From an uncultured Modestobacter sp. (lineage in GTDB: Bacteria; Actinomycetota; Actinomycetes; Mycobacteriales; Geodermatophilaceae), in assembly GCF_947486615.1 (NCBI RefSeq), contig NZ_CANKUD010000007.1, forward strand, positions 51,769 to 115,768: DNA of 64,000 bases. Reading direction: 5' to 3'. Position 1 is the first letter of the stretch. The number at the start of each line of letters is the position of its first letter. Positions 20,283 through 63,387 of this stretch are shown piece by piece. A program made the position numbers and the translations under genes. Under the pieces are notes generated by a model. That model worked only from the letters and a program-made list of their open reading frames with translations, was not told where the DNA came from and ran no database searches.

Positions 20283-20341
20283 GAAGGGCCCCCTTGCCCC
20301 CCATTGCTCGCAGGCTCGCGGCGGGACCCTGCAAGGGGGCC
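20283..20341 (+). repeat. Dispersed palindromic REP/MITE-like element, copy A
   Basis: 11 bp perfect inverted repeat ggcccccttgc/gcaagggggcc; 52/59 identical to the reverse complement of copy B by manual alignment. Confidence 0.85.
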
Positions 20342-20344
20342 GAC

Positions 20345-20393
20345 TGACACGACGAAGGCCCGCTCCCTCGCGGAGCGGGCCTTCGTCGTGTCA
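20345..20393. terminator. Bidirectional terminator between convergent genes
   Basis: tgacacgacgaaggcccgctcc / ggagcgggccttcgtcgtgtca perfect inverted repeat. Confidence 0.85.
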
Positions 20394-20999
20394 GTACCAG
20401 CCGCCGGGCGGCAGCTGCTCCCCGGCGGCGACCGGGGTCTCCACCCGGTTGCCCTCCGGGGCCAGCGGGCAGGTCCAGCGCGGGTCGTAGGCGCAGGAGG
20501 GGTGGTAGGCGAAGTTGAGGTCCACCACCAGCCGGCCGCCGTCGCCGCCGAGGTCGGCGCTCTTGATCGTGTCGAGCAGGTAGCGGCCGCCGCCGTAGGT
20601 CGTCGTCCCGGCGGTGCCGTCGCGCAGGGGCAGGAACACCCCGCCGGCGTAGCCACCGATCCACCAGACGTCCAGCCGGCCGACGTCGCCGAGGGTCACC
20701 CGGCCGATCCGGTCCAGCACCACGACGCCGTCGGCGGCGGTCGGCACCTCCCGGCGCTCGGGATCCACGTCGGTGTCCAGCGGGACGACGAAGCGCAGGC
20801 CGGGGTCGTAGGGGGCGAACGGCAGACCGGCGAAGGCGTCCCGGGCCGCCGCGTCCAGCGGGGAGTCGGGGTGCCCGGCGAGCAGTGCGTCGCGGCCGGC
20901 CCGCCAGGTGTGCCAGCCGGCCTCGGGGTCGTCGGCGGCGCGGACGTCGGTGTACAGCGCGGCCACCCGGCGCCGCCAGTCCAGCAAGGAGAGGGTCAC
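20391..20999 (-). CDS. DUF1684 family protein
   Basis: LLDWRRRVA, FLPLRDGT, TYGGGRYL, DLNFAYHPSCAY..W.CP; start refined to GTG 20999. Confidence 0.85.
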   Translation of the reverse strand: MTLSLLDWRRRVAALYTDVRAADDPEAGWHTWRAGRDALLAGHPDSPLDAAARDAFAGLPFAPYDPGLRFVVPLDTDVDPERREVPTAADGVVVLDRIGRVTLGDVGRLDVWWIGGYAGGVFLPLRDGTAGTTTYGGGRYLLDTIKSADLGGDGGRLVVDLNFAYHPSCAYDPRWTCPLAPEGNRVETPVAAGEQLPPGGWY

Positions 21000-21093
21000 C
21001 GGCCCCACCCTGCCACCGTCCGGGTAGCTGACCTGCTGCGCCACCGGCGCGGATGACGCCGCGAACGCGGTCGGTCACCGTAAGGTGACGGCC

Positions 21094-23610
21094 ATGGCAG
21101 GTCGTCGGGACGACAGCGGTCCCGGTCGAGGACCCCTCCCACCGGTCCCGCAGCGCCCGGGTGCCGCACGGCCCACCCCTCGTCCCGTCGCCGAGCCCTT
21201 CCAGGCCGAGCCCCTCCAGGCCGACCGCCCGGCCGTGGGCCGAGCCGTCGTCGGCCGCCCTGCTGTGGGCCGCCCTGTCGTGGACCGCCCTGCCGTGGAC
21301 CGGCCGCTGCCCGAGCTGCCGGAGCCCGGCGACGACCTGGTGAGCCCGTCGGGCCGGCGCGGCTGGCTGGCTGCCGGCCTGGTCCTGGCCGGCGGCGCGA
21401 CCGTCGCGGTCTTCTTCACCGACGACCCCCTGTACCTGCGGGTCGCCCTGCTCGCGGTCTGCTGGGCCTTCGTCATCGCCGCCTTCCTGGCCAGCAGCCG
21501 TCGCGGCGACCAGGCGGCCGCCGCGGCCCGCGAGGCGGAGCTCCGCCACGCCTACGAGCTGGAGCTGGAGCGCGAGGTCGCCGCCCGGCACGAGCACCAG
21601 CTCGAGCTGGAGAGCCGGCTGCGGCAGGAGGCCGAGCAGGGGATGCGTGGCGAGCTGACCCGGCTGCGCAGCGAGCTCGCCGGGCTCTCCCGCCTGGAGC
21701 AGGACCTCGCCGCGGTGACCGAACTGCGCACCGAGCTGCGGGCGCTCACCGAGATCCGTGGCGAGCTGGCCGAGCTCGGCCAGGTGCGCGCCGAGCTCGC
21801 CGGGCTGGCGGAGCTGCGCGCCGACCTGGGCCGGATGCGCAGCGAGCTGACCGAGCAGCTGTCCGGCGAGCTGCTGGTCGAGCGCATGGTCATGCGCGCC
21901 CAGTCGGTCCGCGGGCCGGCTCACCCCTCCCCGGAGGCCGGCAGCCCGCGGTCGCTGGACGTCTCGCCCTGGGAGTCACCGGCGGTCGGCTGGGACGTCG
22001 ACTCCTGGGAGTCCACCCGGGTCGACCTCGCCGCCGTGACGCCCGCTCCCGCCGACCCCGCGCCGCGGGTGATCGCGGTGCCCCAGCCGCCGGTGCCCCC
22101 GGCCGCTGCGCCGCGCCGGGCGGCCGAGCCGCCGCCCTCCCCGTTGGCGTGGCTGGTCGAGGAGTCGGTGCTGGAGCCCTGGGTCGAGCCCAGCCCCAAG
22201 TCACCGCTGGAGTGGCTGGGCGACAGGTCCCTGATCGACGACGACCGTCGGGACGATGCACGCGGGGACGATGCACGCGGGGACGACGCACGCCGGGACG
22301 AGATGCTGCCCGACGCGGCGGTGCTGCGCGAGGTCGGCCGCTCGATGGGCGGCCTCCCGGCTGTCCCGCCGCCCGCACCGCCCCGCGAGCCCGTGCTGTC
22401 CCGCGAGCCGGCACCGGTGGTCTCGGTCGACCCGCCGCGGCGCCGGCACCGCCGGGCCGCCGAACCGGAGGACGAGGGCACGGCCCGCCCCGTAGGGCCC
22501 CGGCGCAGCCACGCCGCGGCCGAGCAGACCCCGGGCGCCGCGGCCGATCGGCCGGCCTGGGCGACCTGGACGCCGACGGCGAGCGACGCCGAGACACCCG
22601 CCGAGACACCCGCCGAGACGCCCTGGTGGGAGTCGAGCCCGCTAGCGCAGGAGTCGGTCGCCCCGGCGGCTGCGACCGGTTCGGCGGCGGTCGGGTCCAC
22701 GGGGGAGACGCCCGCGCCGTGGGAGTCGCGGTCCTGGGACCAGTCGTCCTGGGAGCAGGCACCGGGGTCGGTCGACGAGACGCCGTCGTGGGGGTCGCGG
22801 TCGGTGGAGCTGCCGTCGTCCGACGGGTGGGCGACCGACCGGGTCCCCGGGGCGTCGCACGCCGCCCCCGCCAGCGGGACGCCCGCGTGGGAGACGCCCT
22901 CGTGGGGAGCGCCCTCGTGGGGGACGACTCCGGCTGACGTGTCCCACGGGGCGTCGTCGTGGGACTCGCCCTCTTCCGAGGGGTCCCGGCAGGGCACGTC
23001 GTCCTGGGAGTCCTCGTCCACCGGGGCGTCGTCGTGGGACCCCTCGTACGGGTCCGTCACCGACGAGGAACCGTCCTGGACCGCGTCGTCGTGGGGCGCG
23101 CCGTCGTCCGAGCAGCCCTCGTCCGAGCAGCCCTCGTCCGAGCAGCCCTCGTCCGAGGTGTCCTCGTACGGGGAGTCGTCGTACGCGGAGTCGTCCGGGG
23201 AGTCGTCGTGGGGGTCCCCGTCGTCCGGGGCCCCGTCCCACGACACCCCGGCGCACTCGACTCCGTCGTGGGGGACGCCGTCCGACGACGAACCGTCCTG
23301 GCGGCGGGTGTCCCACGGTGCGGGCACCGAGCCGGCGCCCTCGACGGGGGCGTCGTCCTGGTCCGACAGCCCGGCAGAGGCGTGGTCGGCACCGTCGTGG
23401 TCCGGATCCGCCGAGGGCCCGACGGCCACGCCGGACCCGGCACCGCCGGTGGCGGAGCCCGGAGCGCAGGGCCACGCGCGGCTGGAGCAGATCCTGGCCG
23501 AGAGCGGGGTCGAGGCGCCCAGCGGTGCGCGGTCCCGGCGGCGCCGCTACCGCGAGGAGGGCGAGGACGCCGCCGACGACGTCCTCGCCCGGGTGCTCGG
23601 CCAGCGGTAG
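21094..23610 (+). CDS. DUF6779-type membrane protein with coiled coil and long Ser/Pro/Trp-rich disordered C-terminus
   Basis: Two TM helices, ELELEREVAAR coil, decad repeats, xSW repeats; position upstream of the pan cluster as in mycobacterial Rv3604c-like genes; TAAGGT 7 nt before ATG. Confidence 0.75.
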   Translation: MAGRRDDSGPGRGPLPPVPQRPGAARPTPRPVAEPFQAEPLQADRPAVGRAVVGRPAVGRPVVDRPAVDRPLPELPEPGDDLVSPSGRRGWLAAGLVLAGGATVAVFFTDDPLYLRVALLAVCWAFVIAAFLASSRRGDQAAAAAREAELRHAYELELEREVAARHEHQLELESRLRQEAEQGMRGELTRLRSELAGLSRLEQDLAAVTELRTELRALTEIRGELAELGQVRAELAGLAELRADLGRMRSELTEQLSGELLVERMVMRAQSVRGPAHPSPEAGSPRSLDVSPWESPAVGWDVDSWESTRVDLAAVTPAPADPAPRVIAVPQPPVPPAAAPRRAAEPPPSPLAWLVEESVLEPWVEPSPKSPLEWLGDRSLIDDDRRDDARGDDARGDDARRDEMLPDAAVLREVGRSMGGLPAVPPPAPPREPVLSREPAPVVSVDPPRRRHRRAAEPEDEGTARPVGPRRSHAAAEQTPGAAADRPAWATWTPTASDAETPAETPAETPWWESSPLAQESVAPAAATGSAAVGSTGETPAPWESRSWDQSSWEQAPGSVDETPSWGSRSVELPSSDGWATDRVPGASHAAPASGTPAWETPSWGAPSWGTTPADVSHGASSWDSPSSEGSRQGTSSWESSSTGASSWDPSYGSVTDEEPSWTASSWGAPSSEQPSSEQPSSEQPSSEVSSYGESSYAESSGESSWGSPSSGAPSHDTPAHSTPSWGTPSDDEPSWRRVSHGAGTEPAPSTGASSWSDSPAEAWSAPSWSGSAEGPTATPDPAPPVAEPGAQGHARLEQILAESGVEAPSGARSRRRRYREEGEDAADDVLARVLGQR
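23104..23157 (+). repeat. 15 bp tandem repeat (tcgtccgagcagccc) x3, encoding SSEQP
   Basis: Direct reading; further short VNTRs at ~22253-22297 (DDARG x3) and ~22591-22620 (ETPA). Confidence 0.85.
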
Positions 23611-23644
23611 CCGGCTCTCACCATCCCAGCCCTCGGCCCCCGGC

Positions 23645-23704
23645 GGCCCCCTTGCAGGGCCCCGCCGCGAGCTCGCGAGTGGTGGGGGGCAAGGGGGTCC
23701 TTCT
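23645..23704 (-). repeat. Dispersed palindromic element, copy B
   Basis: ggcccccttgc/gcaagggggtcc stem, inner cgcgagctcgcg palindrome; abuts the SDR TGA. Confidence 0.85.
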
Positions 23705-24457
23705 TCAGATCGGGCCGCGGGAGAGCGCGCCGCCGTCGAGCACCAGCGTCTGACCGGTGACCCAGCCCGCCTGGTCGCTGAGCAGGTAGGCGGCCGCCTC
23801 GCCGATGTCCTCGGGCACGCCGAGCCGGCCGACCGGGTACTGGCCGCCCAGCTCGTCCTCGCGGCCGGTGAACAGCGCCTCGGCGAACCGGGTCTTCACC
23901 ACGGCCGGGGCGACGGCGTTGACCCGCACCTTCGGGCCCAGCTCCACGGCCAGCTGCGTGGTCAGGTTGATCAGCGCGGCCTTGCTGACCCCGTAGGCGG
24001 CGATGCCCTCGCTGGACTTGAGCCCGGCCACCGACGCCACGATCAGCACCGAGCCGCCGTGCTCGGACATCCACGCCTTCCAGGCCTCCTGCACCAGGCC
24101 GAGGCTGGAGACGACGTTGGTGTCCAGGATCTTGCGGAAGGCCTCCAGCGGGGCGTCCATCAGCGGCCCGAAGACCGGGTTGATGCCGACGTTGCCGACC
24201 AGCACGTCCAGGCTGCCGAAGGTGTCGATCGCGGTGCGGACGGCCTCCGCCCGGTGCTCGGCGTCCCCGGCGTTGCCCGCGACGGCGACCGCTTTCTCCG
24301 GGCCGCCGAGGGTCTCCACCGCCTCGGCGAGCGCCTCGGGCTTGCGGGCGGTGATCACCACCCGGGCGCCGCGGTCGACCAGTGCCTGGGCGATGCCGAG
24401 ACCGATGCCCCGGCTCGCACCGGTCACCAGTGCGGTGCGTCCCTCGAAGCTGCTCAC
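23705..24457 (-). CDS. Short-chain dehydrogenase/reductase
   Basis: TGASRGIG, YxxxK (YGVSK), NAVAPAVVKT, GQTLVLDGG. Confidence 0.92.
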   Translation of the reverse strand: MSSFEGRTALVTGASRGIGLGIAQALVDRGARVVITARKPEALAEAVETLGGPEKAVAVAGNAGDAEHRAEAVRTAIDTFGSLDVLVGNVGINPVFGPLMDAPLEAFRKILDTNVVSSLGLVQEAWKAWMSEHGGSVLIVASVAGLKSSEGIAAYGVSKAALINLTTQLAVELGPKVRVNAVAPAVVKTRFAEALFTGREDELGGQYPVGRLGVPEDIGEAAAYLLSDQAGWVTGQTLVLDGGALSRGPI

Positions 24458-24769
24458 CGTGCTCCTCCTGCTGGTCCGAGCCGGCTCCGCTGCCGGCGCC
24501 GGCTCAACGTAACGGGCCGTGCGGCCGGGCGTCCGGGCGCCCGGGTGAGTCAGGACACACCCCGGCAGCGTTGCCGGGGGCACCGGGGAGGCACAGACTC
24601 GCCTCCGGCGGCAACCTCCGCGTGGCACACCTCCCGGTGGCCGCAGCGGACCGAACCGCCGGCTCTCCAGCGCCACCGCACCACCAGCTCCACCCCGGTC
24701 CACGACGACGTGGGCCGACGCGATCCGAGTCCGGTACCCGCCAGGGACTGGAACGAGAGGTGCACCGGG

Positions 24770-25735
24770 ATGTCGAACCGTCCCCCGCGCGCGGCCGACC
24801 GCACGCGCCCAGCCGTCCTGCCCGCCGCCGGGCTGCTCCCCGCCGCGGCTGCCCCCGCCCGCCTCCGGGTGGGCGTCGTCGGCGCCGGCCGGGTCGGCGC
24901 CGTGCTCGGCGCCGCGCTCGCCGCCGCGGGCCACGACGTGGTCGCCGCCGCCGGCCTGTCCACCGACTCGCAGCGGCGCGCCGCCCGGCTGCTGCCCGGC
25001 GTCCCCCTGCGCCCCGCCGACGAGGTGGTCGCCACCAGCGACCTGGTCGTGCTCGCCGTCCCCGACGACACGTTGTCCGGGCTGGTCACCGGGCTGGCCG
25101 AGACCGGCGCGTGGCGCCGCGGCCAGCTGCTCTTCCACACCTCGGGCGCGCACGGCCTCGCCGTCCTGGCGCCGGCCGAGCGCGCCGGCGTCCTCTCCCT
25201 CGCGCTGCACCCGGTGATGACCTTCTCCGGCGGGCCCGAGGACCTCGACCGGCTGGTGGCCGCACCCTTCGGCGTGACCAGCCGGCCGGAGCACCGGGCC
25301 GTCGCCGAGACCCTCGTGCTGGAGATGGGCGGCGAGCCGGTCTGGGTCGCCGAGGGCGACCGCGGGCTCTGGCACGTGGCCCTGGTCACCGGCGCCAACC
25401 ACCTGGTCACCCTGGTCGCCGAGGCCGCCGACCTGCTGCGCACCGCCGGAGTCGACGACCCGGCCCGGGTGCTCACCCCGCTGCTGACCGCCGCGCTGGA
25501 GGGCGGTCTGCGCCGCGGTGACCAGGCGCTCACCGGCCCGGTCAGCCGGGGGGACGTCGGCACGGTCGCCGCCCACCTGCAGACGCTCACCGAGCGGGCG
25601 CCGTCCTCGGTCGACGCCTACGTGGCCATGGCCCGGCGGACCACCGAGCGGGCGCTGGCGTCGGGCCGGCTCCGCCGGCACGAGGGGACGCCGCTGCTGG
25701 ACCTGCTCGACTCGGCCGAGGAGGCCGCGCGATGA
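24770..25735 (+). CDS. Rossmann-like/DUF2520 oxidoreductase (putative PanG-type ketopantoate reductase)
   Basis: [36 protein letters not shown]; translationally coupled to panC. Confidence 0.85.
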
Positions 25736-26586
25736 CCGTCACGACCCGCCCGGCGGTCGCCGAGACCACCGCCGAGCTGCAGGCCCGCCGCGCGGAGCTG
25801 CCCGGCCCGGTGGTGCTCGTGCCGACCATGGGCGCGCTGCACGAGGGGCACCGCACGCTGGTGCGCGCCGCCCGGGAACGCGGCGGCAGCGTGGTCGTCT
25901 CGGTGTTCGTCAACCCCACCCAGTTCGGGCCGGGGGAGGACTTCGACCGCTACCCCCGCACCTGGGACGCCGACCTCGCCGCGCTGGCCGAGGAGGGCGC
26001 CGACCTGGTCTTCCACCCGCCGGTCGACGAGGTCTACCCGCCCGGGCCGCTGGGCGTGACCGTGCAGCCCGGCCCGCTGGGCGACGTCCTCGAGGGCGCC
26101 GTCCGGCCCGGCCACTTCGCCGGCGTGCTCACCGTGGTGGCGAAGCTGTTCGGGCTGGTCCGCCCCGACGTCGCGGTGTTCGGCGAGAAGGACTACCAGC
26201 AGCTCACGCTGATCCGGGCGATGGCCCGCGAGCTGGCGCTGGGCACCGAGGTCGTCGGGGTGCCCACGGTCCGCGAGGACGACGGCATGGCGCTGAGCTC
26301 CCGCAACCGCTACCTCTCCCCGGAACAGCGCAGCACCGCGGCGGCGTTGTCCAGGGCACTCCGGGCCGGTGCCGCCGCCGGGCCGGACGGTGCCGGCGCC
26401 GTCCTCGCCGCCGCCCGGGAGGTGCTGGCCGCCGCGCCCGGTCTGCTTCAGGACTACCTGGAACTGACCGATCCAGACCTGGGACCGGCACCCGCCACCG
26501 GCCCCGCTCGACTGCTGGTCGCCGCCCGCGCCGGCAGCACCCGACTGATCGACAACACGGCCGTAGAACTGGGGAGTCCCCGATGA
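25732..26586 (+). CDS. panC: Pantoate--beta-alanine ligase
   Basis: [38 protein letters not shown]. Confidence 0.97.
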
Positions 26587-27089
26587 TGCGCACCATGCTC
26601 AAGAGCAAGATCCACCGCGCCACGGTGACCCAGGCCGACCTGCACTACGTCGGGTCGGTCACCGTCGACGAGGACCTGATGGACGCCGCCGACCTGCTGG
26701 TCGGCGAGCAGGTGGCGATCGTCGACGTGACCAACGGCGCCCGGCTGGAGACCTACGTGATCCCCGGGGAGCGGGGGACCGGCGTGCTCGGCATCAACGG
26801 CGCCGCGGCGCACCTGGTGCACCCCGGTGACCTGGTGATCCTGATCAGCTACGGCCTGATGGACGAGACCGAGGCGAAGTCGTACCTCCCGAAGGTCGTG
26901 CACGTGGACGGCGACAACCGCGTCGTCGAGCTGGGCGCCGACCCCTCCGCCCCGGTGCCCGGGGCCGAGGACCACGAACGGAGCCCGCTGGCGGTCGAGC
27001 GTCCTCGGCCCCGTCCCGGGTTCCCTCGCGAGCCTGCGAGCGGAGGGCAGGACGGGGTCCTTCCACCGCTCGGCGTCCCGATCCGGTGA
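26583..27089 (+). CDS. panD: Aspartate 1-decarboxylase with C-terminal extension containing a repeat element
   Basis: [16 protein letters not shown] autocleavage site, [14 protein letters not shown]. Confidence 0.96.
27006..27062 (-). repeat. Dispersed palindromic element, copy E, inside the panD coding frame
   Basis: ggccccgtcc/ggacggggtcc stem as in copy D; inner cgcgagcctgcgag identical to the reverse complement of copy A; ends gtcctt. Confidence 0.85.
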
Positions 27090-46313: not shown

Positions 46314-47281
46314 TGGCCGGCAACAGCCAGCGACGAGGCCGCACGAGCGGCGCGAGCAAGAAGGGCGCCACCGCCGGCACCGGTGGCAAGAACCGCCGCT
46401 CGCTGGCCGGTCGGGGCGCCACCCCGAAGGCCACCGACCGCCCGCACCACCCGGCGTACAAGGCGGCGAAGGCGGCGGCGGCCCGCCAGGACAACCGGCA
46501 GCGGGTGCAGCGGCGCAACGCCGAGGCCCCGGAGCTGCTGCTCGGCCGCAACCCGGTGCTGGAGGCGCTGCGCGCCAACATCCCGGCCACCGCGCTGTAC
46601 GTGGTCACCGGCGACACCAGCCGTGGCGGGACCGACGAGCGGATCGCCGAGTCCGTGCAGCTGGCCGCCGACCGTGGGCTGCCGCTGCTCGAGGTGGGCA
46701 AGGCCGAGTTCGACCGGATGAGCGACCACGCGCTGCACCAGGGCATCGGCCTGATGGTGCCGCCCTACGACTACGCGCACCCCGACGACCTGCTCGACAT
46801 CGCCCGCGACTCCGGCCGCCCGCCGCTGATCGTGGCGCTGGACGGCGTCACCGACCCCCGCAACCTGGGTGCGGTCATCCGCTCGGCCGCGGCCTTCGAC
46901 GCGCACGGTCTGGTCGTCCCCGAGCGTCGCGCGGTCGGCATGACCGGCTCGGCCTGGCGCACCAGCGCCGGCGCCGCGGCCCGGCTGCGGGTGGCCCGGG
47001 CGGTCAACCTCTCCCGTGCGCTCGCCTCCTACCAGGACGCCGGCCTGCAGACCGTGGGCCTGGCCGCCGACGGCGAGATGGGCATCCACGAGTACGACGG
47101 CTTCGCCGACCCGGTCGCGCTGGTCGTCGGGGCCGAGGGCGCGGGGCTGTCCCGGCTGGTGCGGGAGCGCTGCGACGTGGTGCTGTCCATCCCGATCACC
47201 AAGGACACCGAGTCGCTCAACGTGAGCGTCGCTGCCAGCATCGCCCTGTTCGCGGCGGCCTCCGCCCGCCGGGTGAGCTGA
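46313..47281 (+). CDS. rlmB: 23S rRNA (guanosine-2'-O)-methyltransferase (SpoU/TrmH family)
   Basis: [44 protein letters not shown]. Confidence 0.92.
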
Positions 47282-53376: not shown

Positions 53377-53586
53377 GTGAGCGACCACGTCTACCGGCTG
53401 AGCGAGATCGTCGGCAGCTCGACCACGAGCGTCGACGACGCCATCCGCACGGCGGTGCGCAAGGCCTCGCAGACGGTGCGCAACATCGAGTGGTTCCAGA
53501 CCTCGGAGATCCGCGGCCAGGTCGTGGACGGCGACGTGGCGTACTTCCAGGTCACCATGAAGATCGGCTTCCGCGTCGAGGACTGA
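53377..53586 (+). CDS. Dodecin (flavin-binding protein)
   Basis: HVY...EIVGSS, IEWF...EIRG, FQVTMKIGF. Confidence 0.93.
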   Translation: MSDHVYRLSEIVGSSTTSVDDAIRTAVRKASQTVRNIEWFQTSEIRGQVVDGDVAYFQVTMKIGFRVED

Positions 53587-53587: not shown

Positions 53588-53647
53588 GGCCCTCGTGCAG
53601 GGGCCCGCCACGAAATTCGCGAGTGGTGGGGGCACGGGGGTCCTTCT
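53588..53647 (-). repeat. Dispersed palindromic element, copy C
   Basis: ggccctcgtgc/gcacgggggtcc stem, shared gcgagtggtggggg and gtccttctt with copy B; abuts the DUF5313 TGA. Confidence 0.82.
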
Positions 53648-54046
53648 TCAGTCGTAGCTGCCGGCGCCGCCCGACCGGTACCGGGCGCGCTTCTCGATCC
53701 GCTCGCGCTCGGCGCGTTCCGCGCGGCGGGCCGCCGTCGTCCCGGGTGGCCAGCCGGCCTTGACCGCGCGGTGCTCGGTCGTCTCGGTCATGTAGGCGAG
53801 GGAGAACATCAGCCCGATGACGATGCCGCCGCCGGCCGCGGTCACCCGGAACTCCAGCGGCACCGGCGGGACCAGCAGGCACAGCACGATCACCGGGGCG
53901 AGCTGGACGAGCGCGCGGACCAGGTGCCGCTGCACCCAGCTGTGCCGGGTCGTGTCGTCCAGGACCCAGTCCGACAGCGAGCGGGGGAGCCCACCGCCGT
54001 AGGCGTACCAGAGCCACTGGGCCGGGTTCGGGCGTCCAGCGTGCAC
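53648..54046 (-). CDS. DUF5313 family membrane protein
   Basis: RPNPAQWLWYAYGGGLP, WVLDDTT, HRAVKAGWP; TACCGT 6 nt before GTG. Confidence 0.85.
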   Translation of the reverse strand: MHAGRPNPAQWLWYAYGGGLPRSLSDWVLDDTTRHSWVQRHLVRALVQLAPVIVLCLLVPPVPLEFRVTAAGGGIVIGLMFSLAYMTETTEHRAVKAGWPPGTTAARRAERAERERIEKRARYRSGGAGSYD

Positions 54047-54142
54047 GACCCAACGGTAGGCCGCTGCCGGCTGGTGGGCGTGCCGGGCCGGACGCGCGGC
54101 AGCTGGGCCGGGAGCCGCGGATCGCAGGCGTACGGTGCGCCG

Positions 54143-55057: not shown

Positions 55058-55195
55058 CCTCTCCCGGACGCCGTCGGCCGCCGGGGCGTCGGGTGCTCCG
55101 CGCACTGCCGGACGCGGCTACCGTCGAGGGGGTCCGGACACCACCGGGCCGCGTCCCGCACGCCGCCCGACGCCCATCGACCGGAGGCCCGTCCC

Positions 55196-55600
55196 GTGAG
55201 CAGCGACCCCGTCCCGACCGCCGGCCCGGAGCCGGACGGCGGGGCGCCCACCCCATCGCCGGCCGGTGCGGGGACGGCGACCGAGGCCGCCCCGGGCGGG
55301 GCTGGTGGGGCGGCTGTGACTGGCGGGGACGACACGGCTGTGAACCTGCCCGCACGTGAGCGGGAGATGCTGGCCTTCGAACGGCAGTGGTGGCGGTTCG
55401 CCGGGGCCAGGGAGGCCGCCATCCGGGAGCGTTTCGGGATGACGCCCACCCGGTATTACCAGGTGCTCAACGCCCTGATCGACCGACCGGAGGCGCTCGC
55501 GGCCGACCCGCTGCTGGTGCGGAGGCTGCGCCGGTTGCGCGGTGCGCGGCAGCGGCAGCGCTCCGGTCGGGTCCTGGGCACGGACCCCGCTCGCGACTAG
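55196..55600 (+). CDS. DUF3263 family protein
   Basis: LAFERQWW, AIRERFGMTPTRYYQVLNALID, DPLLVRRLRR. Confidence 0.9.
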   Translation: MSSDPVPTAGPEPDGGAPTPSPAGAGTATEAAPGGAGGAAVTGGDDTAVNLPAREREMLAFERQWWRFAGAREAAIRERFGMTPTRYYQVLNALIDRPEALAADPLLVRRLRRLRGARQRQRSGRVLGTDPARD

Positions 55601-55611
55601 CCTCTCTCACC

Positions 55612-57162
55612 GTGGGGAGGCATGCGGCACCAGGCAGTGACGGAAGCGCGCCCGAGGTGTCCGCACCGACGGGTCGTCGCCGCGCCGACGCCCGCCCGGA
55701 CGCCGTCCCCGGCCGGCCAGCGGTCGAAGCGCCACTGGAGTCCCGGCCCACCGGCGCCCTGCAGCGGACGGCGGACACCGGGCCGGACAGCGATGCCGCG
55801 ATGACGATGCCGCGGCAGAGCCGGGCCGACCGTCGTCGCGAGGGACTGCTCCCGGCCGGCGAGGACCCCATGGTGCGCCGCCCGCCGGCTCGCCCGGACA
55901 CGCCCGCGCCGGCCGCCGGCCGCCGGCGCTCCGACCTGCCCGCCGCCGCACCCGTCCCCGACCGTCGGGCGACCGGGGAGCGGACGCCCGCCCCACGGAC
56001 GGCACCGCCGGTCTCCGGCCCGATGACCTCGGCCGCACCCCGCCCGGGCACGCCTCGTCCGGCCGCCGCCGCGTCGGCGCCGGCGACGACCGCCAGCCCG
56101 CGTCCCACGCCGCCCGCTCCCTCGGCCCCGCCGCCGGCCGGTTCGGCGATGCCCCCCGTGGCACGGGCCGCCGGAGCGCCGGGCCGGACGGCCGAGCCGG
56201 CCCCCCTGCCCCTGGACGTGACCCAGCGGGTCTCCGGGTCCGCCCCGGCCGAGTCGGCGTGGGGCACGGCCGCCACCACGGCCCCGCCGACGAACGCCGC
56301 ACCCGTGAACGCCGCACCCGTGGACGCCCCGTCCACGGCCACCCCGCCTGCCGCACCCGCCCCGCCGGCCGCCGGGCGCAGCGCTCAGCCCGCCGCCGTG
56401 CCGCCGGTCGCGGGCCGGCGTCCGGCGACGCCGTCCCCCGCCGTGCCGGAGCTGCCGGCCGCCGCTCGCGCCGAGGACGACGGGGGCCCGGCGGCCCCGG
56501 CCCGCCGCGCCGTCGACGTCCCCGTGGGCGGTCGCGCCGCCCTCCGGCTGGAGCGGCAGGCGGCCGAGGCGGCCCGCAAGAAGTCCGGCACCCGGCGCCC
56601 CGCCGCCGAGGCGGCTCCCCGGTCCGACCGGGACGACGCCCCCGCCGAGGACGTGCGTCGCGGCCCCCGCCGCCTGGCGCAGGGGCTGGTCGCCGTCGCG
56701 GTGGTCGCGCTCGCGGTGCTGGGCTGGTGGTCCTTCGCCTCGCCGAGCACCACCGAGACCTCGGCGCAGACCCCGGTACCGAGCATCGCCCCCTCGCCCT
56801 CGGTGTCCCCGGTCCAGGAGAGCGTCGCGCCGGCACCGGAGATCACCCCGGCTCCGGTCGGCCCGGTCTTCGCGCCGATCACCGTGCTGAACAGCACCAC
56901 GATCAACGGCCTGGCCGCCGACGTCGGTGACCAGTTCGCCGCCGGCGGCTGGGAGGTGCTCGACACCGCGGCCTCGCCGGTCGACGACGTCGCCACCACC
57001 ACCGTGTACTTCAGCGAGGGCAACACGGTGCAGCAGCAGGCGGCCACCCAGCTGGTCGAGCAGTTCCCCGACGTCTCCGGCCCGGTCGCCCGCTACTTCG
57101 AGGTGCCCGGCGTCGCCGACCCCGGCCTGGTCGTCGTGGCCACCGGGAACTGGCAGCCCTGA
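55612..57162 (+). CDS. LytR_C-domain membrane protein with long Pro/Ala/Arg-rich N-terminus; start provisional
   Basis: TM helix ~56690-56740, ITVLNSTTINGLAA, TTVYF, LVVVATG; paired with DUF3263; TAGCCT 8 nt before GTG. Confidence 0.75.
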   Translation: MGRHAAPGSDGSAPEVSAPTGRRRADARPDAVPGRPAVEAPLESRPTGALQRTADTGPDSDAAMTMPRQSRADRRREGLLPAGEDPMVRRPPARPDTPAPAAGRRRSDLPAAAPVPDRRATGERTPAPRTAPPVSGPMTSAAPRPGTPRPAAAASAPATTASPRPTPPAPSAPPPAGSAMPPVARAAGAPGRTAEPAPLPLDVTQRVSGSAPAESAWGTAATTAPPTNAAPVNAAPVDAPSTATPPAAPAPPAAGRSAQPAAVPPVAGRRPATPSPAVPELPAAARAEDDGGPAAPARRAVDVPVGGRAALRLERQAAEAARKKSGTRRPAAEAAPRSDRDDAPAEDVRRGPRRLAQGLVAVAVVALAVLGWWSFASPSTTETSAQTPVPSIAPSPSVSPVQESVAPAPEITPAPVGPVFAPITVLNSTTINGLAADVGDQFAAGGWEVLDTAASPVDDVATTTVYFSEGNTVQQQAATQLVEQFPDVSGPVARYFEVPGVADPGLVVVATGNWQP

Positions 57163-57215
57163 CCCGGACCGCCCGGGAGCGGAACCACTCCGCCGCGCCG
57201 TCCGTTGCCGCCTCC

Positions 57216-60092
57216 GTGCGCACCGCCTCCGGGCCGGCGCGGAACGGCTCGCGCTCCGGCGCCCGGCTGCTCCCCGCCGCCCTGCTCGCCCTTCTGCTGA
57301 CCCTCCCGCTCCTGGTGGGCACCGCCCTGCCCGCTCGGGCGGCCGAGGAGGTCACCACCACGGAGGCGACCGTCCCCTCCGGCGCGGGCGCGGACGCGGT
57401 CGAACTGGACACCACGCTGTACCTGCCCGCCTCGGCGACGGCCGACGAGCCGGCGCCCGCGGTGCTCCTCGCGCACGGGTTCGGCGGGAGCAAGGAGTCG
57501 GTCGCCACCGACGCGCGGGACCTGGCCGACCGCGGCTACGTGGTGCTCGCCTGGTCGGCCCGCGGGTTCGGGGCGAGCACCGGCCAGATCGGGCTGGACG
57601 ACCCGCGGTACGAGGTCGCCGACGTCAGCACGCTGCTCGACGTCCTGGCCGAGCGGGACGACGTGCTGCTCGACGGCCCCGGTGACCCACGGGCCGGAAT
57701 CGCCGGCGCCTCCTACGGCGGTGCACTGTCGCTGCTGGCCGCCGCCTACGACCAGCGGGTGGACGCGATCGCCCCGCAGATCACCTGGAACTCCCTCACC
57801 ACCGCCTTCTTCCCCGACCAGACCGGCGTCGTCGCCGACGCCGGCACCCCGGCCGCCGTCCCGCGTACCGAGGACGCCGGGGTGTTCAAGCGCACCTGGG
57901 CGGGCCTGTTCTTCGGCACCGGCTCGGTGCCCGGCGACGGCGGGCTGCTCGGTGGCCGGACCGGCAACGGCACCGCGGGCAGCACGGCCCCGGCGGACGG
58001 TGCGGCGCCGGCGGACGGTGCGGCCCCGGCGGACGGCGTCGACCCGGCCGCGGTGCAGGCGCTCACCTGCGGCCGGTTCCGGGCCGACATCTGCGCGGCC
58101 TACGAGTCGGCCGCCTCGACCGGCACGCTCACCCCGGAGGTCGCCGCCGTCCTGGACCGGAGCAGCCCGGCCGGCGTGCTGGACCGGATCACCGCGCCGA
58201 CCCTGCTGGTGCAGGGCACCCAGGACTCGCTGTTCGGGCTGGGCGAGGCCGACGCCAACGCGCGGGGGATCGCCGCCAACGGCACGGACGTCCGCGTGGT
58301 CTGGTACTCCGGCGGTCACGACAGCTCCGCCTCCGACCGGGTCACCACCGAGCTGCGCGACGAGGTCGCCGACTGGTTCGACCGGCACCTGCGCGACGGG
58401 TCCGGTGCCGACGGGGGCTTCCGGTACCCGGCGCCCACCGGGCTGGCCGGGGGGCTGAGCGCGCAGGGCGGCTCGCAGACCGTCTCCGCGGCCGAGTACC
58501 CGGGGCTGGACGGCGCGGCCCCGGTCGAGCGGCGCGAGGTCGAGCTCGGCGGCGACACCCAGCCGGTGGTGACCCCGGCCGGCGGCAGCCCCGCCGCGCT
58601 GTCGACCGTGCCCGGCCTGGGCGCGGTGTCGGCGGCGCTGGGCGGCAGCACGCTGGAGATCCCCGGCCAGTTCGCCGCCTTCGACAGCCCCGAGCTGACC
58701 GAGGCCGTCGACGTGGTCGGCGCGTCCACCGTCACGCTCACCGTCGCCGTCCCGGCCGGGACGGCGACGATGTTCGCCAAGCTCTACGACGTCGCCCCCG
58801 ACGGCACGATGACGCTGCCCAGCGGCCTCGTCGCCCCGCTCGCGCTCACCGGGCTGTCCGCCGAGCCGACCGAGGTGCCGGTGACGCTGCCGGCGATCGT
58901 GCACCGCTTCGAGGTCGGCCACACCATGCGCGTGCTGGTCTCCTCCACCGACCAGGCCTACGCCCTGCCGGCGGACTCCGCGGTGTCGACCGTGGGGCTC
59001 GCGGAGGGGGCCACCCTCGCCGTCCCGCAGGTCGCCGGTGAGGTGCAGGCGACCGCCGGGTCGGGCCGGTGGTGGGTGCTGCTCGGCGTGCTGGCCGGCC
59101 TGGCCCTGCTGGGCTGGCTGGCCACGGTGCTCCTCGGCCGGCGCCGCCGCAGGCGGGTGTCGGAGTCCGCGCCCGACGGCGAGGACGTGCCGCTGCGGTT
59201 CGAGGGCGTCACCAAGGCCTACTCCGACGGCTTCGTCGCCGTCCGGGACCTCTCCTTCGAGGTGCGCCGCGGCCAGGTGCTCGGCCTGCTGGGGCCCAAC
59301 GGCGCGGGCAAGACGACGTCCCTGCGGATGCTGATGGGCCTGATCCGGCCGACCGAGGGGCGGATCGAGGTGTTCGGTCACGCCGCGGGCCCCGGTGCCC
59401 CGGTGCTGTCCCGGCTGGGCTCGTTCGTGGAGGGCACCGGGCTGCAGCCGCACCTGTCCGGCCGGGACAACCTGACCCTCTACTGGGCCGCCACCGGCCG
59501 GCCGCTGGCCGACGCGCACATGGACGAGGCGATCGAGGTCGCCGGCCTGGGTGCGGCGCTGGACAAGCCGGTGCGCAGCTACAGCCAGGGCATGCGGCAG
59601 CGGGTGGCGATCGCCCAGGCGATGCTCGGCCTGCCCGACCTGCTGGTGCTCGACGAACCCACCAACGGGCTGGACCCGCCGCAGATCCACGCCATGCGCG
59701 ACGTGCTGCGCTCCTACGCCGCCACCGGCCGCACGGTGATCGTCTCCAGCCACCTGCTCAGCGAGATCGAGCAGACCTGCAGCCACGTGGTCGTCATGGC
59801 CAAGGGGCAGAAGATCGTGCAGGGCACGGTGGAGGAGATCGTCGGGACCGGGGGAGCGGTGCTCATCGGGCTGGCCGACCCGGCCGACACCGACCGGGCG
59901 GTCGCCGTGCTCGCCGGCCTGCCCGGCGTCGGCGAGGTCGAGCGGACGGCGGAGGGCCTGGTCGTCGACCTCGGTCAGACCGGCCGGGCGGCTGCGCTGG
60001 CCGCCCTGGTCGAGGCCGAGATCGGCGTCGACCAGCTCACCCCGCGCCGCCGGCTGGAGGATGCGTTCCTGTCACTGGTGGGGGAGTCATGA
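57216..60092 (+). CDS. CocE/NonD (peptidase S15-like) alpha/beta hydrolase fused to ABC ATP-binding domain
   Basis: Signal peptide, HGFGG, GASYGG nucleophile elbow, QGTQDSLF, GGHD, TM then RRRRRR, GPNGAGKT, YSQGMRQR, LVLDEPTNGLD. Confidence 0.88.
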   Translation: MRTASGPARNGSRSGARLLPAALLALLLTLPLLVGTALPARAAEEVTTTEATVPSGAGADAVELDTTLYLPASATADEPAPAVLLAHGFGGSKESVATDARDLADRGYVVLAWSARGFGASTGQIGLDDPRYEVADVSTLLDVLAERDDVLLDGPGDPRAGIAGASYGGALSLLAAAYDQRVDAIAPQITWNSLTTAFFPDQTGVVADAGTPAAVPRTEDAGVFKRTWAGLFFGTGSVPGDGGLLGGRTGNGTAGSTAPADGAAPADGAAPADGVDPAAVQALTCGRFRADICAAYESAASTGTLTPEVAAVLDRSSPAGVLDRITAPTLLVQGTQDSLFGLGEADANARGIAANGTDVRVVWYSGGHDSSASDRVTTELRDEVADWFDRHLRDGSGADGGFRYPAPTGLAGGLSAQGGSQTVSAAEYPGLDGAAPVERREVELGGDTQPVVTPAGGSPAALSTVPGLGAVSAALGGSTLEIPGQFAAFDSPELTEAVDVVGASTVTLTVAVPAGTATMFAKLYDVAPDGTMTLPSGLVAPLALTGLSAEPTEVPVTLPAIVHRFEVGHTMRVLVSSTDQAYALPADSAVSTVGLAEGATLAVPQVAGEVQATAGSGRWWVLLGVLAGLALLGWLATVLLGRRRRRRVSESAPDGEDVPLRFEGVTKAYSDGFVAVRDLSFEVRRGQVLGLLGPNGAGKTTSLRMLMGLIRPTEGRIEVFGHAAGPGAPVLSRLGSFVEGTGLQPHLSGRDNLTLYWAATGRPLADAHMDEAIEVAGLGAALDKPVRSYSQGMRQRVAIAQAMLGLPDLLVLDEPTNGLDPPQIHAMRDVLRSYAATGRTVIVSSHLLSEIEQTCSHVVVMAKGQKIVQGTVEEIVGTGGAVLIGLADPADTDRAVAVLAGLPGVGEVERTAEGLVVDLGQTGRAAALAALVEAEIGVDQLTPRRRLEDAFLSLVGES

Positions 60093-60994
60093 GCCACGCG
60101 ACCGACGATCCGGCCATGGTGGCCAACAAGGCCGGAGCCGGAGCCGGGACGGGGGCGGCGGCAGGGTACCGGCCGGAGCGGACGCTGCGGCTGGGGGTCG
60201 AGCTGCGCCGGCAGTTCAAGCGCCGCCGGACCATCGGCGTGCTGGTGCTGATGGCGGCGCTGCCGCTGCTGCTGATCGGCGCGCTGCAGCTGGGCGGCAC
60301 CGAGGAGGCGTCGGAGAACACCCGGGTCAACCTGGTCGACGTCGCCTCGTCGAGCGGGCTGAACCTCACCCTGTTCACCCTGTTCGCCACCACCGGCTTC
60401 TTCCTCGTGGTCGTCTTCGCGCTGTTCTTCGGCGACACCGTGGCCAGCGAGGCGTCCTGGGGGTCGCTGCGCTACGCGCTGGCCACCCCGGTGCCACGCG
60501 CCCGGCTGCTCAGGCAGAAGTGGCTGGCCGCGCTGATCCTGTCGGTCGGGTCGATGGTGCTGCTGGTCGTCGTCTCGGTGGTCGCCGGTGGGATCGCCTT
60601 CGGCTTCGGGGACGTGCAGACCCCGGTCGGCCTGGCGCTGGACCAGGGGACGGCGCTGGTGCGGCTGGCCGGGATGGTCGGCTACCTCGCCGTCCACCTG
60701 CTGGTGGTGGGCACGCTGGCGTTCTGGCTGTCCACCGTCACCGACGCGCCGCTGGCCGCGGTCGGCGGCGCGGTGTTCACCACCGTGGTGTTCGCGGTGC
60801 TGGAGCAGGTCGAGCAGCTGGACGGCATCCGCGACTGGTTCCCCACGGCGTTCAACTACGCCTGGACCGACCTGCTGCAGACCCCGGTCGACTCCGGTGA
60901 CCTGTTCCGCGGCGTCGTCCAGGGGCTGGTCTACTCCGCCGTCTTCACCGCCCTCGCCGTCCGGCACTTCGCCCGCAAGGACGTCACGAGCTAG
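60089..60994 (+). CDS. ABC-2 type permease
   Basis: Six hydrophobic segments, GDTVASEASWGSLRY, coupled to the preceding gene. Confidence 0.88.
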   Translation: MSHATDDPAMVANKAGAGAGTGAAAGYRPERTLRLGVELRRQFKRRRTIGVLVLMAALPLLLIGALQLGGTEEASENTRVNLVDVASSSGLNLTLFTLFATTGFFLVVVFALFFGDTVASEASWGSLRYALATPVPRARLLRQKWLAALILSVGSMVLLVVVSVVAGGIAFGFGDVQTPVGLALDQGTALVRLAGMVGYLAVHLLVVGTLAFWLSTVTDAPLAAVGGAVFTTVVFAVLEQVEQLDGIRDWFPTAFNYAWTDLLQTPVDSGDLFRGVVQGLVYSAVFTALAVRHFARKDVTS

Positions 60995-61007
60995 CGGTCG
61001 GAGCGGA

Positions 61008-61832
61008 TCAGCCGAGGCTGGTCAGCACCGCCTGGGCCCAGCCCTCGCCCATCGGCGCGTCGGTGACGGTGGCGTTCGGGACGGCGGCGATCCGGTCGGC
61101 CATCCCGGTCACCGCCGCGCCGTTGGCGGTGACCCACAGCCGGCCGACCGCCGGTGCCATCTCCAGGTCGCTGACGCTGTCGCCGACCGCCACCGCGTCC
61201 GCAGCGTCCAGCCCTCGGCGGGCGAGGTCCCAGCGGATCGCCTCGCCCTTGGAGATCCCGCGCGGCATCAGGTGGTAGACGTGCGGCGGCAGCGCGTCGG
61301 CGTCCAGCGTCATCCGCGGGGTGGCCGGCACCGCGCCGTTGTCGTTCATCGTCAGCCAGCCCCAGCCGCGCTCGGCCAGCCAGTCGTCGACCGCGGCGGC
61401 ATCGACCCGGCCGCGCAGCAGCGCGTCGGCGGAGTGGGTGGCGTGCCAGGGCTCGTGCCACTCGATCCGCCCCGGGTGCGCGGCGATCAGCTGCTCCACC
61501 ACGCCGAGCTCGGCCAGCACGTCCATCGGCGTCCGGCCGGCGTACTGCTCGGGCAGGTCGCCGGTGAGCAGATGGGTCTCCCGGCCGCCGGCCCAGCTGA
61601 CCAGCGAGCCGAGCTCGGCGATCGCGCCGTCGGCGGCGAAGATGCGGCCGGCCTCCAGCAGCTGGGCGTGGGTGCGGCCGCTGACCAGCACCAACGGGAC
61701 GCCGGCCCGGTGCAGCTCCAGGAGCGCGGCGGCGGGAGAGGCGGTCGGCACGCGGTCGGCGGTGTGCCAGAACGAGCCCCGCGGGCCCACCATCGTGCCG
61801 TCGAGGTCGGTGTAGACGATGCGGGTGGCCAC
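61008..61832 (-). CDS. HAD superfamily (Cof/MPGP-like, IIB) phosphatase
   Basis: YTDLDGT, VSGR, SKGEA, AVGDSVSDLEM; start refined to GTG 61832. Confidence 0.85.
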   Translation of the reverse strand: MATRIVYTDLDGTMVGPRGSFWHTADRVPTASPAAALLELHRAGVPLVLVSGRTHAQLLEAGRIFAADGAIAELGSLVSWAGGRETHLLTGDLPEQYAGRTPMDVLAELGVVEQLIAAHPGRIEWHEPWHATHSADALLRGRVDAAAVDDWLAERGWGWLTMNDNGAVPATPRMTLDADALPPHVYHLMPRGISKGEAIRWDLARRGLDAADAVAVGDSVSDLEMAPAVGRLWVTANGAAVTGMADRIAAVPNATVTDAPMGEGWAQAVLTSLG

Positions 61833-61893
61833 GGGCCCATCCTGTCGGTGCCGGGCGGGCAGGGCGGCTCCGGGTAGAGTCGGTGACGTTCCA

Positions 61894-62015
61894 CTCATCC
61901 AGAGGGGCAGAGGGACACGGCCCGATGAAGCCCCGGCAACCGCCGTCGCACTCCCGCGACGGAAGGTGCCAATTCCGTCTCGCGCGGCTCGACGGCCCGG
62001 CGCGGGGAAGATGAG
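61894..62015 (+). ncRNA. SAM-I (S-box) riboswitch
   Basis: CTCATCCAGAG..GAGGGA..GGCCCGATGAAGCCCCGGCAACC..GGTGCCAATTCC..GAAGATGAG; P1 3' strand overlaps the GAGGAGG RBS. Confidence 0.92.
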
Positions 62016-62029
62016 GAGGTAGTCGTCGC

Positions 62030-63331
62030 ATGACCATGACCGCTCCCGGCTCCGCCCAGGCAGACGTCACCGAGGGTGGGCCGGTCCCGCCGAACCCCGC
62101 CCGCGGGCTGGTCTGTCGCAACTGCGGCGCCACCTTCGCACTGATCGCCGAGCACGCCTGCGCCGAGTGCTTCGGCCCGCTGGAGGTCGACTACGACCCC
62201 GAGCTGATGCGCGCGGTGACCCGCCAGCAGATCGAGGCCGGCCCGCAGAACATCTGGCGCTACGCCGCCCTCCTGCCGGTCGGGCAGGACCCGGCCGACC
62301 GGGTCACCCTCGACCCGGGCATGACCCCGCTGGTCCGCGCCGACCGGCTGGCCGCCGAGCTCGGCCTCACCGGTGGGCTGTGGGTCAAGGACGACTCGGC
62401 CAACCCCACGCACTCCTTCAAGGACCGGGTGGTGAGCCTGGCCGCGACCGCGGCGAAGAGCTTCGGCTACGCCAAGATCGCCTGCGCCTCCACCGGCAAC
62501 CTGGCCAACTCCGTCGCCGCGCACGCCGCGCGGATGGGGCTGCCCTCCTTCGTGTTCGTGCCCAGCGACCTGGAGCCGGGCAAGATCACCCAGTCCGCGG
62601 TCTACGGGCAGGCGCTGGTCGCCGTCGACGGCAACTACGACGACGTCAACCGGCTGACCAGCGAGCTCGCCGAGACCGACGAGTTCGAGGACACCGCCTT
62701 CGTCAACCAGAACGTCCGGCCGTACTACGCCGAGGGCTCCAAGACGATGGGCTACGAGATCGCCGAGCAGCTGGGCTGGCGGATCCCGGCCCAGGTGGTC
62801 ATCCCGATGGCGTCCGGCTCGCTGCTCACCAAGGTGGACAAGGCCTGGCGCGAGCTGGTCGCCGCCGGCATCGTCGAGGACACCGGCTGGAAGGTCTTCG
62901 GCGCCCAGTCCGCCGGCTGCGACCCGATCGCGACCGCCTTCGACAACGGCTGGGACGTCGTCAAGCCGGTCAAGCCCACCGGGATCGCGAAGTCGCTGAA
63001 CATCGGCAACCCCGCCGACGGGCCCTACGCCCTGGACGCCATCCGGCGCACCGGCGGCTCGGTCGGCCGGGTCGGGGACGACGAGATCGTCGCCGGCATC
63101 CGCGACCTGGCCCGCACCACCGGCGTCTTCGCCGAGACGGCCGGTGGCGTGACCACCGCGGTGCTGCGGCAGCTGGTGGAGAAGGGGCTGATCGACCCCA
63201 CGCAGGAGGTCGTCGTGCTGAACACCGGCGAGGGTCTGAAGACCCTGGACCCGCTGCTGCCGGTGGTCGGGCCCTCGCACCACGTGCAGCCGTCGCTGAG
63301 GTCGCTCCGCGAGGCCGGCCTCATCGCTTAG
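62030..63331 (+). CDS. thrC: PLP-dependent threonine synthase-like enzyme (fold type II)
   Basis: N-terminal CxxC..CxxC, NPTHSFKDR PLP lysine, ASTGN, EGSKTM, PMASGSL, NTGEGLK. Confidence 0.88.
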   Translation: MTMTAPGSAQADVTEGGPVPPNPARGLVCRNCGATFALIAEHACAECFGPLEVDYDPELMRAVTRQQIEAGPQNIWRYAALLPVGQDPADRVTLDPGMTPLVRADRLAAELGLTGGLWVKDDSANPTHSFKDRVVSLAATAAKSFGYAKIACASTGNLANSVAAHAARMGLPSFVFVPSDLEPGKITQSAVYGQALVAVDGNYDDVNRLTSELAETDEFEDTAFVNQNVRPYYAEGSKTMGYEIAEQLGWRIPAQVVIPMASGSLLTKVDKAWRELVAAGIVEDTGWKVFGAQSAGCDPIATAFDNGWDVVKPVKPTGIAKSLNIGNPADGPYALDAIRRTGGSVGRVGDDEIVAGIRDLARTTGVFAETAGGVTTAVLRQLVEKGLIDPTQEVVVLNTGEGLKTLDPLLPVVGPSHHVQPSLRSLREAGLIA

Positions 63332-63387
63332 GCCCCGTCCGGAGGCTCGCCCCGAGCTTGCGAGGGGTGAGGGGGACGGGGTCCTTT
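63331..63387 (-). repeat. Dispersed palindromic element, copy D
   Basis: ggccccgtcc/ggacggggtcc stem, inner cgagcttgcg, gtcctt end; starts at the thrC stop. Confidence 0.8.

Follow-up and report, generated by a model that had tools for sequence, protein, structure and literature searches.

The closest described counterpart of the repeat reported here is TRIT ('Tuberculosis Rho-independent terminator'), a hairpin that is conserved in sequence and structure, is present in 147 copies in Mycobacterium tuberculosis and is found in one genus only (Gardner et al. 2011, PMC3152330). TRIT lies at a very narrow distance from stop codons and is mostly bidirectional (PMC3152330); it was later reinterpreted as a hairpin that is probably an RNase III substrate and shapes 3′ ends (PMC13714241). 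TRIT overlaps little with mapped termination sites. Here, we describe the AAGGA element, a hairpin repeat present in five copies in a 64,000-nucleotide stretch of DNA (the window) from an uncultured Modestobacter sp. of the family Geodermatophilaceae. The element appears to behave like TRIT in every respect compared, a likeness that rests on TRIT's description: both would be lineage-restricted hairpins conserved in sequence and structure, with about 150-200 copies per genome, two strands that fold, a tight stop-codon distance, no canonical U-tract and no known mobilising enzyme. The AAGGA element may differ from TRIT in its AAGGA tail at one end only, in a stem segment that is hypervariable yet paired, and in a marked strand asymmetry. 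We consider it moderately probable that the element is a TRIT-like gene-end hairpin repeat, inserted next to C-TGA without target duplication and retained as a two-way transcript-end structure.

Other palindromes invite comparison. Repetitive extragenic palindromic (REP) elements, and the hairpin-forming REP doublets called REPINs, are known with REP-associated tyrosine transposases (RAYTs) from Proteobacteria (PMC2817692). Like the AAGGA element, REPs are imperfect palindromes that abound outside genes and have a short conserved head beside the stem, and some lie near stop codons and affect mRNA stability. Palindrome-associated transposable elements (PATEs), which derive from IS200/IS605, share with it a constant tetranucleotide at one end, the lack of target duplication, and hairpin-centred, strand-specific folding. 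In integrons, attC (the 59-base element) starts at the cassette gene's stop codon or overlaps it; the AAGGA element has a similar length, is likewise an imperfect palindrome with unpaired marker bases that starts at or overlaps a stop, and folds better on the bottom strand.

A hairpin repeat of the Geodermatophilaceae

How large is the family, and which bacteria carry it? Iterated nhmmer searches of the genome (4.70 Mb, 74% G+C, 37 contigs, 99.98% complete) converged on 203 non-overlapping copies, and a covariance model (R1) built from 59 genomic copies (alignment A1) confirmed at least 149, with 150 candidates scored. The preliminary description, made from the letters of the window, had guessed at hundreds of copies genome-wide, and the guess was right; about 8% of sampled gene ends carry a copy. 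R1 has matches in every one of the 25 same-genus genomes; 16 other families gave none. When the survey was widened to 151 genomes from the order, the 12 that belong to the family (5 genera) were all positive, as opposed to 0 of the 139 genomes of other families, among which mycobacteria are presumably present; the element and TRIT differ in host family. The hosts named by an exact-pattern scan, namely Geodermatophilus, Blastococcus, Modestobacter, Trujillonella and related metagenome-assembled genomes, are all Geodermatophilaceae; by the identity of flanking sequence, the genome studied is probably a Modestobacter. None of the five window copies matched Rfam at the gathering score, and at E values up to 10 only chance matches of 14-16 bits appeared; BLAST searches of plasmid and phage collections gave no match, with a low-complexity filter that may hide short GC-rich matches; and no description of the element in Geodermatophilaceae was found in the literature. 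The family, at about 200 copies per genome, was seen only in the Geodermatophilaceae and is apparently not previously described.

The element measures about 59 nt, or up to about 75 nt when optional flanks are counted, and has a tail, N-R-A-G-G-A, at one end only. Its outer stem, 11 bp with a bulged A, is hypervariable over the central 5 bp, which nevertheless form Watson-Crick pairs in nearly every case. The other parts are an internal loop that is asymmetric, with 2 nt 5′ and 5 nt 3′, an inner stem of 8 bp with a fixed A.C mismatch, and an apical loop of 10 nt with the conserved motif CTCGC-R-N-GCTCG. Placed in a common orientation, the five window copies read GAAGGACCCC-N5-CCCCCCACC.CTCGC..GCTCG.GGCGGG.CCCT-N5-GGGGCC. 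There are two subfamilies, distinguished by the inner stem. Of the genome's 135 occurrences of the loop motif, written as CTCGC[AG]NGCTCG, 116 fall within copies.

Is it the structure or the sequence that is conserved? Covariation strongly supports the preservation of the two-stem structure, as the preliminary description had proposed from five copies. Across the 59 aligned copies, 95.7% of pair cells are standard, compared with 81% in shuffles, and 136 cells show changes on both sides, compared with 39; none of 500 shuffles reached the observed values, and registers shifted by 1-3 columns lower the pairing to 42-54%. Among 160 copies there are 58 distinct 9-nt arms, yet the outer stem is 94% Watson-Crick paired, and G.U is not in excess over A.C.

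About 15-20 copies (e.g., C2:114831, C2:484310, C8:22034; coordinates with a C prefix are genome contigs) extend beyond GGGGCC with GTTCCAGCACGTCACC. Within this 3′ extension, GTTCCAG is a mirror of CTG..GAA..GG on the 5′ side, a sign that the ancestral palindrome may have been longer.

The tail is anchored to stop codons. With genes called as long open reading frames (ORFs) that have the coding GC3/GC2 pattern (G+C at third and second codon positions), a genuine same-strand stop lies -3 to +12 nt from the AAGGA end in 110 of 148 canonical copies, and exactly at +1 in 76 of the 148; the fixed, asymmetric end reported earlier is thus locked to stops. The typical junction is C-TGA-N-GAAGGA. At the opposite end, a convergent stop is equally near in only 25 of 148 copies, and the distances are broad. 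The base preceding TGA is C in 91 of 94 cases, versus 63% across all long ORFs (p=3e-15), the base following TGA likewise departs from background (p=8e-13), and TAG stops lie mostly at +2. Other genera follow the same rule, with TGA at +1 in 79 of 166 copies. As for gene context, 70 copies lie between convergent genes, a setting that is enriched (49% of copies vs 32% of all gene ends; p=5e-5), and 73 of 148 between genes of the same direction; from the hairpin to the convergent gene's stop the distance is broad, with a median of 31 nt.

Two translational readings of this junction were rejected. A small ORF, with GAAGGA as a Shine-Dalgarno sequence ahead of an NTG start, has no conserved start position, and a read-through signal akin to a selenocysteine insertion sequence (SECIS) is countered by the TAG and TAA junctions and by the lack of a conserved downstream frame.

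Turnover, insertion marks and the search for a mobiliser

Copies are gained, lost and flipped at the same gene ends between species. For 117 loci taken from other family members, 69 orthologous sites could be placed in this genome; 31 of these syntenic sites are filled and 38 empty, so that the filled and empty sites on which the earlier proposal depended do both occur. At well-aligned empty sites the native stop codon is mostly in an unchanged position (L041 is an exception), which places the element just behind a pre-existing stop.

The sites of the window copies (A to E, Table 1) tell the same story at close range. At site A, compared in 19 same-genus genomes, 7 have a copy on the stop of the OpuAC gene, 6 have one in the opposite orientation on the stop of the convergent gene, and 7 have none. 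At least 5 of the 7 element-free genomes hold unrelated private hairpins there, and one has only 8 nt between the stops. The junctions at site A differ across species (TGA-N-GAAGGA, TAG-AAGGA, TAG-GAGGA and TAG-GACC), and the stop type of the same gene changes along with them. Site C is, in relatives, either empty or filled in one or the other orientation. Where site B lacks a copy (relatives L127, L128, L132 and L136), the convergent stops overlap (..gccgCTAGatc..), giving a negative intergenic distance; the overlap illustrates how compact these gene ends are. The panD insertion that holds copy D is shared, among alignable same-genus loci, with only L141 (genome G013); the others show a clean join.

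How do the copies arrive? The preference for C-TGA-N, the lack of duplication, and the recurring TG-GAAGGA and GAAGG-TG-GAAGGA junctions together argue for a sequence-targeted mechanism. Four loci share the junction TGA-N-GAAGG-TG-GAAGGACC. More than one copy occurs at only 14 of 188 loci, most of them direct or truncated dimers. Direct dimers and a trimer are seen at C3:139301-139459, C2:138042-138142, C9:26579-26679 and C6:236257-236358; in these, the GAAGGA head is missing from the later units, the 5′ outer arm too in some, and the linkers are CTGA(C/T) or GGAG.

Such observations could describe a miniature element that is purely selfish and that another transposase or recombinase, one with a preference for C-TGA-N, moves in trans; adjacency to stops would then mark harmless sites and bring the host no benefit. 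Gain, loss and orientation flips at the same sites agree with this view, as do the enrichment of C before TGA, which points to a DNA-level target, the in-frame insertions within genes, and the nested or chimeric copies with recurrent GAAGG-TG-GAAGGA junctions; TG at the 5′ boundary, taken with the occasional 3′ GTTCCAG extension, suggests terminal inverted repeats. However, the marks of such a transposon are missing. Near the 3′ end, exact repeats (3- to 6-mers) of the sequence flanking the 5′ end are no commoner than in permuted pairings (for 5-mers, 3 observed vs 3.3 expected), with the panD insertion alone showing a 5-nt repeat. In the genome, no solo left-half and right-half matches pair within 60-8000 nt, as they would in a longer element with these ends, and nearby copies rarely have the same arm; an autonomous parent and a composite transposon were both rejected on these grounds. 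Furthermore, the near-perfect pairing across the 58 arm variants and the replacement hairpins at empty sites suggest selection on the helix. On balance, a purely selfish element is unlikely. A MITE (miniature transposable element with inverted repeats) of a DDE transposon was rejected, there being neither a target-site duplication nor a longer autonomous element.

The preliminary description had favoured another mobiliser: in a REP- or REPIN-like system, non-autonomous hairpins would be moved by a RAYT or an IS200/IS605-type Y1 HUH transposase that reads the hairpin and a short flank. The element does look the part. It is a hairpin with a one-sided conserved flank and a constant CTGA at one end only; it has no detectable target duplication, folds in a strand-asymmetric way, and is present in hundreds of extragenic copies. 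Such features are typical of single-strand HUH transposition (IS608, REP/RAYT). But where is the enzyme? The Y1 HUH profile (PF01797) is absent from this genome and from 25 of 25 same-genus carriers, in searches that found their positive controls; among 40 relatives searched, its only occurrences are in two further families of the order, both element-free. Because no Y1 HUH gene exists in any of the 25 carrier genomes, the REP/RAYT reading fails, and it must now be considered very improbable. The architecture differs as well: the copies are mostly single, not inverted doublets or arrays of bacterial interspersed mosaic elements (BIMEs), and the conserved flank is C-TGA-N/AAGGA, not a GTAG-type head, on a unit of ~59 nt with two stems and a stop register fixed at +1. 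A replication-strand bias was not seen (47% vs 53%, p=0.35), in a comparison whose power is low owing to the draft genome and its weak skew. PATEs differ in a similar manner, since they have two subterminal hairpins where the AAGGA element has a central one, and its carriers lack TnpA(Y1).

An attC-like site, whose folded bottom strand is read by a tyrosine recombinase as in integron cassettes, would account for a ~59-nt imperfect palindrome with a conserved bulge and mismatch that starts at the stop and folds better opposite the gene. Nevertheless, the genes concerned are not cassettes, because the copies stand singly behind core genes that have identical neighbours in empty-site genomes. There are no arrays, and the ends (GAAGGACCCC and GGGGCC(G)) are unlike the RYYYAAC/GTTRRRY core sites; an integron attC was accordingly rejected, and an attC-like site is exceedingly improbable.

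A different candidate came from six genes with a C-terminal DUF559 nuclease-fold domain (AbiEi-like), all outside the window: C4:278450-279487, C3:482233-483204, C4:326237-327211, C2:330706-331752, C7:230583-231497 and C8:121787-122812. Most are flanked on both sides, upstream and just after the stop, by one private palindrome; the C8 gene has two different hairpins. These genes resemble hairpin-ended single-gene cassettes, and their hairpins are unrelated to the AAGGA family. As mobilisers they were rejected: only one of them adjoins a family copy, which belongs to the convergent neighbour, and no link was shown.

Strand asymmetry and possible roles at gene ends

If the element serves the gene whose stop it abuts, why does it fold better on the other strand? 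RNA folding makes the strand opposite the AAGGA strand the more stable one in 146 of 148 copies (-37.5 vs -30.5 kcal/mol; Wilcoxon p=7e-26). The advantage of about 7 kcal/mol arises because A.C on the gene strand corresponds to G.U (or G.T) on the other: this holds for the A.C mismatch that is fixed and for another that is frequent, and G-then-U pairs number 300 on the opposite strand vs 5 (342 vs 59 with both orders counted). On this strand, the helix is followed by UCCUUC-N-UCA, in which UCA is the complement of the neighbour's stop, a tail with 3-4 U in 8-10 nt. The asymmetry would fit a single-stranded DNA substrate or a terminator-like role against convergent transcription, and not a simple reading as an element of the 3′ untranslated region (3′ UTR) only.

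The second of these roles can be stated as an explanation in its own right, in which the working strand is the one opposite the abutted gene and the element is an intrinsic-type terminator (hairpin plus UCCUUC-N-UCA) that shields the gene's 3′ end from convergent or antisense transcription. The greater stability of that strand and its conserved G.U pairs are what such a terminator would have; that strand alone bears a pyrimidine- or U-rich tail 3′ of the hairpin; copies are over-represented in the space between convergent genes; and the broad distance from stop to hairpin on that side resembles that of ordinary terminators. Against this, the 73 copies between same-direction genes have no gene on that strand to terminate, the tail holds merely 3-4 U, and the fixed C-TGA-N register is left unexplained. 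Mycobacterial RNA polymerase is reported to require a U-tract in vitro (PMC3993855), which weighs in the same direction. A canonical intrinsic terminator was rejected outright, as the hairpin lacks a U-tract of ~7-9 nt on either strand, and termination on the opposite strand as the sole function is distinctly unlikely.

The favoured TRIT-like reading combines targeted insertion with use in both directions. A trans-acting factor would place the element next to C-TGA, probably reading a folded single strand; the element would then be retained as a supplier of a stable helix, a feature general to gene ends in this genome. Genome-wide, the 70 nt past stop codons fold at -33.2 kcal/mol, vs -29.9 kcal/mol for coding interior. 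Since gene ends are structured throughout the genome and empty sites tend to hold private hairpins, the element may be viewed as a portable gene-end helix that is useful both ways. In the gene's own transcript, the mRNA 3′ end would be set by the interrupted ~20-bp helix, either as a block to 3′ exonucleases or through RNase III-like processing of the kind suggested for TRIT; convergent or antisense transcription would be stopped at the gene border by the opposite strand's stronger helix together with UCCUUC-N-UCA.

Several observations weigh against this account. On the gene strand, no U-tract follows the hairpin (T makes up 6-20% of the first 8 nt), and the better-folding strand is the one opposite the abutted gene, which is unexpected for a pure 3′-UTR element. 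The copies between same-direction genes, which trouble a terminator on the opposite strand, trouble the opposite-strand half of this account too. The junction is variable (TGA-N-GAAGGA, T-GAAGGA, TAA-GGA, TAG-GAGGA and TAG-GACC), and the anchoring to stops would look the same whether insertion is targeted or selection acts after insertion. Searches with PF01797, with half-elements and for DUF559 genes revealed no mobilising protein. Finally, the element is not detectably of the same family as TRIT, which is known here by description, because R1 has no match outside the Geodermatophilaceae.

A bolder proposal concerns the machinery itself. We put forward, tentatively and as a possibility only, that an undescribed non-HUH insertion machinery, one that leaves no target duplication, reads the folded opposite strand and puts hairpins at C-TGA-N, that machinery of the same kind underlies TRIT, and that one paired hypervariable arm is copied or corrected from the other.

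The window copies, neighbouring repeats and wider meaning

Scanned in full and without filters, the window matches R1 at exactly five copies (E=3e-16 to 1.3e-8), those listed in the preliminary description, and the next match has E=0.079 (Table 1). That description's details also proved accurate: identity between copies A and B is 52/59; copy C has the CGTGC/GCACG swap in its stem and a changed apical loop; and for each of copies A, B and C a single base separates the TGA of a real gene from the start of the element, which lies between convergent genes.

Table 1. Positions in the window of the AAGGA elements and associated features
Feature	Position	Strand	Remarks
Copy A, full element GAAGGG...GGGGGCC	20283..20341	+	R1 78.5 bits, E=5e-15
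Copy B, full element	23645..23703	-	R1 84.2 bits, E=3e-16
Copy C	53588..53646	-	R1 62.6 bits
Copy D, inside panD insertion	27006..27063	-	R1 49.3 bits, E=1.3e-8
panD insertion, 81 nt in-frame (27 codons), C-terminal tail	26990..27070	-	Contains copy D
Copy E, second subfamily (..GTCC-CCCTCACCCC..GGGGCGAGCCTCCGGAC..)	63330..63387	-	R1 72.4 bits
Partial chimeric remnant	8466..8506	+	Solo right-half nhmmer match; R1 model positions 17-48 only, E=0.2
Ordinary private hairpin (gacacgacgaaggcccgctcc...ggagcgggccttcgtcgtgtc), not a family member	20346..20392		Between copy A and the convergent DUF1684 stop

The gene behind which copy A lies encodes an OpuAC-type binding protein (19145-20281; TGA at 20279-20281), and copy A is the only one of the five on the plus strand. 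The private hairpin next to it is kept beside the element in three relatives (L151, L152, L159). Copy B follows the TGA of a short-chain dehydrogenase gene (23707-23705, minus strand). Copy C occupies the entire 61-nt gap from the TGA of the dodecin gene (53584-53586, plus strand) to that of the DUF5313 gene (53650-53648, minus strand), with the AAGGA end towards the latter.

The two remaining copies depart from this pattern. Copy D lies within the coding sequence of panD: beyond it, the insertion comprises TG 5′ of the element and 16-17 nt 3′ of it, with the 5-nt repeat ccgct on both flanks, and no second copy of the 17-nt extra flank was found in the genome. The Asp_decarbox domain of PanD stops upstream of the insertion, which stands just before the panD/nadB GTGA overlap. 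In copy E it is the plain GGCC end that overlaps a stop, the TAG (63329-63331) of a plus-strand gene for a pyridoxal phosphate (PLP) enzyme; the AAGGA end, where there is no stop codon, points towards the csp leader. Immediately behind a TGA (8462-8464) lies the remnant, a fusion between half of a flipped copy of subfamily 2 and the 3′ half of a copy of subfamily 1.

Other palindromes share the gene ends of this genome. A second family, CCGC(A/C)(A/G)AAATGGCCATTT(C/T)(T/G)GCGG, has 5 copies: C3:482256 and C3:483205, which are cassette ends, C3:254878, C3:466139 and C5:70368. In relatives L124, L125, L127-L129 and L135, this second palindrome stands directly after the panD stop, where the present genome has copy D. 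A third palindromic repeat, GGCCATGTT(G/C)GC(G/C)AACATGGCC, occurs 49 times (C5:~46600-46715; e.g., C1:204012, C4:48644, C4:48687), sometimes three in tandem immediately past a stop; at one orthologous site it occupies the position that the AAGGA element has in another genus. A conserved non-coding stretch of ~95 nt is found in four copies (loci L208-L211; C2:~482330-482430, C4:~81590-81690, C5:~269300-269400 and C11:~11830-11930); it shares with the AAGGA element only the GCTCGC..GCTCG loop motif and has no Rfam match at E<=0.01. On its opposite strand the stretch ends in GAGGAG and a start codon, which gives it a leader-like appearance, and one gene downstream, which starts MSTFSGLNTA, resembles a flagellar hook-associated protein.

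What does the AAGGA family mean for its hosts and beyond? A REP-like look does not imply a RAYT system. For annotation, the copies matter since stop codons and C-termini can be reshaped by them, and in occasional cases, of which panD is one, they contribute in-frame residues. Lineage-specific, TRIT-like gene-end hairpin repeats have a precedent as a class, and the Geodermatophilaceae family itself is apparently undescribed. For TRIT-like hairpins, function (terminator vs processing site) and spread have been unexplained since 2011; the AAGGA family provides a second sharply defined example, in hosts (Modestobacter, Blastococcus, Geodermatophilus) that are cultivable and non-pathogenic. With ~200 copies, a fixed stop register, strand asymmetry and frequent gain and loss between species, it is well suited to the questions that TRIT has raised.

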